A stretch of 41,969 bases of DNA from Enterobacteria phage O276. The notes beneath the pieces were generated by a model, which saw nothing but the letters and a program-made list of their open reading frames with translations, did not search any database and was not told the DNA's origin. A program made the translations under genes and the position numbers. The stretch lies in the sequence record NC_049951.1. One strand, given 5' to 3'. Shown here piece after piece: positions 19,651 to 21,802 of this stretch (its first letter is position 1; each line of letters opens with the position of its first letter).

Positions 19651-19788
19651 ATGGCAGTAAAGATTTCAGGAGTCCTGAAAGACGGCACAGGAAAACCGGT
19701 ACAGAACTGCACCATTCAGCTGAAAGCCAGACGTAACAGCACCACGGTGGTGGTGAACACGGTGGGCTCAGAGAATCCAAATGAAGCC
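19651..19788 (+). pseudogene. stf: side tail fiber gene stf, 5' remnant only; tfa absent
   Basis: MAVKISGVLKDGTGKPVQNCTIQLKARRNSTTVVVNTVGSENP then the sequence leaves lambda stf at about 19779-19789. Confidence 0.8.
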
Positions 19789-20742
19789 ATAGGCATTTGT
19801 TATTTTGGCTCTGTCAGCTGCATAACGCCAAAAAATATATTTATCTGCTTGATCTTCAAATGTTGTATTGATTAAATCAATTGGATGGAATTGTTTATCA
19901 TAAAAAATTAATGTTTGAATGTGATAACCGTCCTTTAAAAAAGTCGTTTCTGCAAGCTTGGCTGTATAGTCAACTAACTCTTCTGTCGAAGTGATATTTT
20001 TAGGCTTATCTACCAGTTTTAGACGCTCTTTAATATCTTCAGGAATTATTTTATTGTCATATTGTATCATGCTAAGTGACAATTTGCTTATGGAGTAATC
20101 TTTTAATTTTAAATAAGTTATTCTCCTGGCTTCATCAAATAAAGAGTCGAATGATGTTGGCGAAATCACATCGTCACCCATTGGATTGTTTATTTGTATG
20201 CCAAGAGAGTTACAGCAGTTATACATTCTGCCATAGATTATAGCTAAGGCATGTAATAATTCGTAATCTTTTAGCGTATTAGCGACCCATCGTCTTTCTG
20301 ATTTAATAATAGATGATTCAGTTAAATATGAAGGTAATTTCTTTTGTGCAAGTCTGACTAACTTTTTTATACCAATGTTTAACATACTTTCATTTGTAAT
20401 AAACTCAATGTCATTTTCTTCAATGTAAGATGAAATAAGAGTAGCCTTTGCCTCGCTATACATTTCTAAATCGCCTTGTTTTTCTATCGTATTGCGAGAA
20501 TTTTTAGCCCAAGCCATTAATGGATCATTTTTCCATTTTTCAATAACATTATTGTTATACCAAATGTCATATCCTATAATCTGGTTTTTGTTTTTTTGAA
20601 TAATAAATGTTACTGTTCTTGCGGTTTGGAGGAATTGATTCAAATTCAAGCGAAATAATTCAGGGTCAAAATATGTATCAATGCAGCATTTGAGCAAGTG
20701 CGATAAATCTTTAAGTCTTCTTTCCCATGGTTTTTTAGTCAT
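19768..20742 (-). CDS. ea47: Ea47-like protein, 3'-truncated fusion ORF (track ORF 19768..20790; probable native start ATG at 20742)
   Basis: AT-rich minus-strand ORF; spacing between the AAGCTT at 19954 and the ATG at 20742 (788 bp) equals that between lambda HindIII 23130 and the ea47 start 23918 (recalled); last codons and stop lie in antisense stf sequence. Confidence 0.5.
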   Translation of the reverse strand: MTKKPWERRLKDLSHLLKCCIDTYFDPELFRLNLNQFLQTARTVTFIIQKNKNQIIGYDIWYNNNVIEKWKNDPLMAWAKNSRNTIEKQGDLEMYSEAKATLISSYIEENDIEFITNESMLNIGIKKLVRLAQKKLPSYLTESSIIKSERRWVANTLKDYELLHALAIIYGRMYNCCNSLGIQINNPMGDDVISPTSFDSLFDEARRITYLKLKDYSISKLSLSMIQYDNKIIPEDIKERLKLVDKPKNITSTEELVDYTAKLAETTFLKDGYHIQTLIFYDKQFHPIDLINTTFEDQADKYIFWRYAADRAKITNAYGFIWIL

Positions 20743-21802
20743 AAAACAATTTAGTGAATTTATCATCGTCCACTTGAATCTGTGGTTCATTACGTCTTAA
20801 CTCTTCATATTTAGAAATGAGGCTGATGAGTTCCATATTTGAAAAGTTTTCATCACTACTTAGTTTTTTGATAGCTTCAAGCCAGAGTTGTCTTTTTCTA
20901 TCTACTCTCATACAACCAATAAATGCTGAAATGAATTCTAAGCGGAGATCGCCTAGTGATTTTAAACTATTGCTGGCAGCATTCTTGAGTCCAATATAAA
21001 AGTATTGTGTACCTTTTGCTGGGTCAGGTTGTTCTTTAGGAGGAGTAAAAGGATCAAATGCACTAAACGAAACTGAAACAAGCGATCGAAAATATCCCTT
21101 TGGGATTCTTGACTCGATAAGTCTATTATTTTCAGAGAAAAAATATTCATTGTTTTCTGGGTTGGTGATTGCACCAATCATTCCATTCAAAATTGTTGTT
21201 TTACCACACCCATTCCGCCCGATAAAAGCATGAATGTTCGTGCTGGGCATAGAATTAACCGTCACCTCAAAAGGTATAGTTAAATCACTGAATCCGGGAG
21301 CACTTTTTCTATTAAATGAAAAGTGGAAATCTGACAATTCTGGCAAACCATTTAACACACGTGCGAACTGTCCATGAATTTCTGAAAGAGTTACCCCTCT
21401 AAGTAATGAGGTGTTAAGGACGCTTTCATTTTCAATGTCGGCTAATCGATTTGGCCATACTACTAAATCCTGAATAGCTTTAAGAAGGTTATGTTTAAAA
21501 CCATCGCTTAATTTGCTGAGATTAACATAGTAGTCAATGCTTTCACCTAAGGAAAAAAACATTTCAGGGAGTTGACTGAATTTTTTATCTATTAATGAAT
21601 AAGTGCTTACTTCTTCTTTTTGACCTACAAAACCAATTTTAACATTTCCGATATCGCATTTTTCACCATGCTCATCAAAGACAGTAAGATAAAACATTGT
21701 AACAAAGGAATAGTCATTCCAACCATCTGCTCGTAGGAATGCCTTATTTTTTTCTACTGCAGGAATATACCCGCCTCTTTCAATAACACTAAACTCCAAC
21801 AT
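20735..21802 (-). CDS. ea59: Ea59-like P-loop ATPase, truncated after codon 355 (no Walker B / C-terminal half)
   Basis: Walker A GRNGCGKTT at 21194..21220; start and the EcoRI site at 20933 colinear with lambda ea59 (recalled); lambda Ea59 is 525 aa. Confidence 0.7.
   Translation of the reverse strand: MLEFSVIERGGYIPAVEKNKAFLRADGWNDYSFVTMFYLTVFDEHGEKCDIGNVKIGFVGQKEEVSTYSLIDKKFSQLPEMFFSLGESIDYYVNLSKLSDGFKHNLLKAIQDLVVWPNRLADIENESVLNTSLLRGVTLSEIHGQFARVLNGLPELSDFHFSFNRKSAPGFSDLTIPFEVTVNSMPSTNIHAFIGRNGCGKTTILNGMIGAITNPENNEYFFSENNRLIESRIPKGYFRSLVSVSFSAFDPFTPPKEQPDPAKGTQYFYIGLKNAASNSLKSLGDLRLEFISAFIGCMRVDRKRQLWLEAIKKLSSDENFSNMELISLISKYEELRRNEPQIQVDDDKFTKLFYD

Follow-up and report, generated by a model that had tools for sequence, protein, structure and literature searches.

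The genome of Enterobacteria phage O276 (NC_049951.1; the whole stretch of 41,969 nucleotides that was analysed is hereafter called the window) contains at 19768-21802 two long minus-strand ORFs, 19768-20790 and 20735-21802. The G+C content is 33.4% in 19789-21802, as against 56.9% in the left arm (window 1-19788). The question raised by this locus is whether it houses genes of foreign origin or is what remains of the b region of lambda after deletion. The original prediction, made from the sequence alone, claimed the latter: two deletions of about 3.2 kb and 2.0 kb, similar to the classical laboratory deletions b519 and b515. We conclude that 19768-21802 is almost certainly the scar of b519 and b515 in O276, a laboratory hybrid of lambda b515 b519 that carries HK022 immunity.

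The whole window was aligned by BLASTN to reference lambda (NC_001416), and the junctions were then compared base by base. The following colinear blocks were obtained:

Window 1-19788: lambda 1-19787, with one extra G at 14267
Window 19775-20747: lambda 22951-23923, with one mismatch
Window 20738-28863: lambda 25909-34034
Window 32059-41969: lambda 38592-48502, gapless

From the offsets of these blocks, exactly 3,177 bp and exactly 1,995 bp are missing relative to NC_001416, a total shortening of 5,172 bp. The colinear blocks separated by gaps of about 3177 bp and 1995 bp that had been anticipated were thus recovered, and the two claimed deletions hold to the base. The landmarks on which the prediction had relied were likewise confirmed: the HindIII site at 19954 corresponds to lambda 23130 and the EcoRI site at 20933 to lambda 26104, while the ATG at 20742 is the ea47 start and the ORF start at 21802 is that of ea59.

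Replacement of the b region by non-lambda accessory genes would also give an AT-rich stretch bounded by two junctions, and a lack of similarity between 19789-20737 and lambda had been named as the sign of such a foreign origin. That segment, however, is identical to lambda 22965-23913, within ea47, at 948 of 949 bases (99.9%), and 20748-21802 is identical to lambda ea59. Nor does the low G+C content of 33.4% set the stretch apart, as the intact ea47-ea59 region of lambda is similarly AT-rich (35.7% G+C). The deletions therefore stand, and the probability of a foreign substitution is practically negligible. The sole mismatch in the middle block, A>G versus lambda at 20076, is located inside the kept ea47 segment.

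The two junctions read as follows:

19775-19788: b519 junction, an imperfect direct repeat that matches at 12/14 positions, ATCC[GG/AA]ATGAAGCC, with ATCC (19775-19778) as the overlap
20738-20747: b515 junction, the one copy left of a perfect 10-bp direct repeat, GTCATAAAAC

The sequence across the b519 junction is GAGAATCC-AA-ATGAAGCC-ATAGG in the window, ATCC-GG-ATGAAGCC-GGGCG on the stf side of lambda and ATCC-AA-ATGAAGCC-ATAGG on its ea47 side. At 19779-19780 the window has AA, as on the ea47 side, where the stf side has GG, and this limits the exact overlap to ATCC at 19775-19778. The string ATGAAGCC, which had been proposed as the junction, does lie inside the repeat, but it is not the junction itself. 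The b519 deletion removes lambda 19778-22954, that is, the 3,177 bases by which b519 is recognized, and the window resumes with lambda sequence at 19779, directly after 19778; with them have gone tfa, the greater part of stf and the 3' end of ea47. The b515 deletion removes lambda 23924-25918 (1,995 bp), in which lie ea31, the 3' third of ea59 and the sequence upstream of ea47; it is located between b519 on its left and att on its right, at the size and place of b515. The 5-bp string ATGAC predicted at this joint falls within the repeat but is only part of the overlap, which extends to the 10 bp of GTCATAAAAC.

Each deletion thus joins a pair of short direct repeats and leaves one copy, as in illegitimate deletion at short homologies, with 10 of 10 bp matching at b515 and 4 bp matching exactly within 12 of 14 at b519. 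We evaluated these homologies against a chance model in which random deletions of 1-6 kb were simulated within lambda 19.6-27.5 kb. Exact overlaps of 4 bp or more arose with P = 0.017 and those of 10 bp or more with P = 1.5e-5; for a 12/14 window across the junction, P was 5.5e-5. Both junctions are located at real short homologies, far beyond what random breakpoints provide, although the 4-bp exact overlap of b519 is by itself weakly significant (P about 0.02) and the case at this junction depends on the 12/14 imperfect repeat.

O276 (GenBank MH547045) was described by King & Perez in 2018 as an HK022/lambda hybrid of 41,969 bp (PMC6256539). The deletions, their sizes and this genome are therefore already published. 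The announcement names both deletions, giving 3,177 bases for b519 and 1,995 bases for b515, which bears out the suspected resemblance; it states these sizes and no coordinates (PMC6256539). It also reports one inserted G at 14,267, places the crossovers in the cIII-IS903 and cII-O intervals, and lists HK022 nun, cI, cro, cII and IS903 together with a cI ts mutation (PMC6256539). All of these published features are present in the window: the length, the G at 14267, the HK022 block, the crossovers and the deletion sizes. We take the endpoints found here to be those of the published O276 deletions on the basis of size, genome length and the other matching features, and the junctions are now spelled out at the base level: ATCC in a 12/14 repeat for b519 and a perfect 10-bp repeat for b515.

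Could the same scar have come about in another way? Recombination between short repeats could strike the same 10-bp repeat again, so that a natural polymorphism, or independent look-alike events, might mimic the deletions of Parkinson without descent from them. We consider this very unlikely, given that the sizes, the genome length, the G insertion and the HK022 block all fit published O276, whose lambda parent is documented as b515 b519. There are also 39 direct 10-mer match positions 1-6 kb apart in lambda 19.6-27.5 kb, which makes coincidence unlikely. Searches of phage records, complete E. coli genomes, viral contigs, GTDB genome contigs and metagenome contigs brought up neither the b519 nor the b515 junction, which speaks against a natural polymorphism and agrees with a single laboratory lineage. 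Removal of restriction fragments in vitro, as in the lambda cloning vectors behind DE3, is brought to mind by the many laboratory lambda derivatives with such deletions, DE3 itself lacking exactly the EcoRI fragment 21226-26104. At neither junction of the window, however, does the joint coincide with a bounding restriction site. EcoRI, HindIII and BamHI sites are absent from both, the nearest being those at 19954 and 20933, and we therefore conclude that the deletions were not made in vitro. Both junctions also fall within direct repeats, and the b5xx deletions, which go back to 1971, predate in vitro recombination (reference cited in PMC6256539); the engineered origin is accordingly exceedingly improbable. 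The chance of an assembly artefact is comparably slight. The genome was assembled with Newbler from short Ion Torrent reads, in which repeats can collapse, and both junctions do lie within repeats, but the reads, 100-200 bases long and at 120-fold coverage (PMC6256539), far exceed 10-14 bp, and repeats this small cannot make such an assembly collapse; the deletions, too, were known genetically and physically well before sequencing (references cited in PMC6256539).

For the b519 and b515 deletions, we propose two independent spontaneous events in the non-essential b region. The homology lengths are consistent with spontaneous deletion between short repeats, which may have proceeded by replication slippage or by RecA-independent recombination between the short homologies; the sequence alone does not discriminate slippage from break-and-join. 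The deletions would have been retained because particles with less DNA survive selection with chelating agents or heat. Parkinson and Huskey reportedly selected deletion phages in 1971 with just such agents, chelators or heat. The shorter genome also frees packaging room for extra DNA while the integration functions are kept. The integration functions in the window are as follows:

22553-22567: attP core, intact, lambda 27724-27738 (offset 5171; the block has no mismatch before 27427)
22641-23711, minus strand: int, intact, 356 aa

Window 20738-27426 is identical to lambda 25909-32597 and covers the attP core, int and xis, with which integration and lysogeny are still possible. In lambda b2, a non-essential b-region deletion that was selected for less DNA, the left arm of attP is removed and integration is blocked. 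The O276 window differs from b2 in keeping both the attP core and int intact, and the intact core sets b515 and b519 apart from att-removing deletions such as b2. The use of b515 b519 as a background for hybrids and transposon hops can be explained by these properties, because extra DNA fits and lysogeny is still possible.

Related stocks carry the same named deletions. Lambda 'bbnin' (cI857 b515 b519 nin5 Sam7) is a documented transposon-hop vehicle (PMC6188088), and b519 is also found in the laboratory stock lambda b519 imm21 susP (PMC10392684). O276 resembles both in these b-region deletions, which reduce genome size, and differs from them in the immunity region; the lambda nin region of the window is also intact, 32059-41969 being gapless. 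The DE3 prophage (EU078592) is similar in that the side tail fibre genes and ea59 are truncated and ea47 and ea31 are removed. The difference is that DE3 has lost 4,878 bp in one piece, the EcoRI fragment 21226-26104, with the ends rejoined at GAATTC; this deletion is engineered and not of the short-repeat type. We had considered DE3 as a carrier of b515 and b519 and rejected it because of this EcoRI-fragment deletion; its b-region junction was located at EU078592 41266-41346.

Three remnants of genes are left around the junctions:

19651-19875, plus strand: stf remnant ORF of 74 aa, with 43 native Stf residues (DNA to 19778) followed by ea47 antisense sequence
19768-20742, minus strand: truncated ea47 of 324 aa, with native residues 1-323 of 410, one non-native Leu and a stop
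20735-21802, minus strand: truncated ea59, exactly residues 1-355 of 525

The original prediction spoke of a stf'-ea47'-ea59' fusion. The remnants of the three genes do stand side by side, but they are not fused in frame into a protein. It had also placed the end of lambda-like sequence at about 19788, near stf codon 46, whereas native stf in fact stops at 19778, codon 43; the common prefix of the remnant with lambda Stf is 43 aa, and the match to the Pfam model phage_tail_N, which has 134 positions, covers only residues 1-47. The 340-aa ORF listed at 19768-20790 is the ea47 remnant extended upstream to an ATG within ea59 sequence. The native Shine-Dalgarno sequence of ea47, GGAG, lies upstream and was deleted by b515, and the ea47 start is overlapped by the TAA stop of the ea59 remnant (ATGACTAA). 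The A>G change at 20076 gives F223L in the Ea47 remnant. Neither full-length nor truncated Ea47 had a match in Pfam, NCBIfam or PADLOC. In the Ea59 remnant, Walker A (GRNGCGKT at 195) is kept, and the Walker B-like LVLFDE at 387 is gone, as is the C-terminal ATPase half with the AAA_21/AAA_15 (Pfam) and PtuA matches at residues 310-522. Lost entirely are tfa (orf-194), orf-314 and ea31. We regard the remnant ORFs as by-products, of which no function is expected, and recommend that 19651-19875, 19768-20742 and 20735-21802 be annotated as gene remnants rather than as new genes.

In a CRISPRi screen of lambda, every affected gene scores as non-essential, and the stf of laboratory lambda is already frameshifted (PMC10695390). 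Because of this frameshift, the loss of stf and tfa adds no phenotype in comparison with laboratory lambda. Full-length lambda Ea59 matches the PADLOC models PDC-M01A (E about 1e-201 to 4e-201) and PtuA (E = 5e-184), each end to end; Ea31 matches PDC-M01B (E = 6e-113) and is annotated in RefSeq as an HNH endonuclease. Judging from these profile matches, lambda 24509-26973 (ea31 and ea59) appears to encode a candidate Septu-like ATPase-nuclease pair that b515 would have destroyed. The window has no intact pair of this kind, as it retains only residues 1-355 of Ea59, without the Walker B motif at 387, and ea31 is absent. It is conceivable, though in our estimation rather doubtful, that Ea59 (a PtuA-type ATPase) and Ea31 form a prophage-encoded anti-phage defence that is missing from b515-type laboratory lysogens. 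If this were true, lysogens of b515, b2 and EcoRI-B-deleted lambda, including BL21(DE3), would all be devoid of the Ea59-Ea31 defence, and common laboratory lambdas would differ in a so far unscored immunity phenotype.

To the right of the integration functions, the window departs from lambda in another manner. The HK022 immunity block extends over 28752-32160, is 99.7% identical to HK022 and carries nun, cI, cro, cII and the following insertion:

28864-29920: IS903, 1,057 bp, from HK022, with a 9-bp target duplication, TTGGAATGA, at 28855-28863 and 29921-29929

The site of this insertion is homologous to the ea10-ral intergenic region of lambda. On either side of the block, window 27380-28740 and 32170-34320 both match phage 21 (OL657228) at 100% identity and reference lambda at only about 98%. 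Three-way alignment gave the phage 21 allele at 25 of 25 informative sites in 27427-28811 and at all 37 in 32500-34269, and the informative sites beyond these two intervals have the lambda allele. Phage 21 is thus the source of gam, kil, cIII, ea10, O, P and ren, along with the 3' part of bet and part of ninB, whereas the published description assigns all non-HK022 genes to lambda (PMC6256539). An HK022 origin for the clusters of SNPs in bet-ea10 and in O-ninB was considered and rejected, as HK022 shows no alignable similarity there except in the last approximately 160 bp of the right interval (ninB).

From the phage 21 alleles to the left and right of the HK022 block it is evident that the 'lambda' parent was itself a hybrid of lambda and phage 21, of the lambda imm21 type. 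HK022 Nun excludes lambda and does not exclude phages with phage 21 nut sites; Nun exclusion would make such a parent a sensible choice. The sequenced lambda imm21 (OM418625) and DE3 have lambda alleles at the left flank (98.2% identity), so their left crossover differs from that of O276. The crossover from phage 21 to HK022 lies within 28812-28853, 10-52 bp left of IS903, and that from HK022 to phage 21/lambda lies within 32125-32135, an 11-bp interval located after the cII stop and before the O start. Both intervals agree with the gene-level positions in the announcement (PMC6256539). O276 is thus a mosaic of three parents, lambda, phage 21 and HK022, which is relevant when phenotypes are assigned to its 'lambda' recombination or replication genes.

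Two further differences concern single bases. Inside the immunity genes, the sole difference from the HK022 reference is T>A at 30905, which gives cI D163V. This is presumably the cIts12 allele mentioned in the announcement (PMC6256539), in which case residue 163 would be responsible for the ts phenotype. With the extra G at 14267, which NC_001416 lacks, K has an ORF of 247 aa (14133-14876), as against the 199 aa annotated for K in the reference; K of phage 21 is likewise 247 aa long and has the same base at the position of the extra G. This difference probably reflects a mistake in NC_001416 and not a mutation of O276.

In the right arm, R, Rz and bor (39085-40055) show five scattered differences from NC_001416. 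The 1,151 bp at 39000-40150 are 100% identical to the DE3 prophage, and other resequenced lambdas are 99.7% identical. The sequence of the right arm suggests that O276 may share a laboratory lineage with the imm21 vector line behind DE3.
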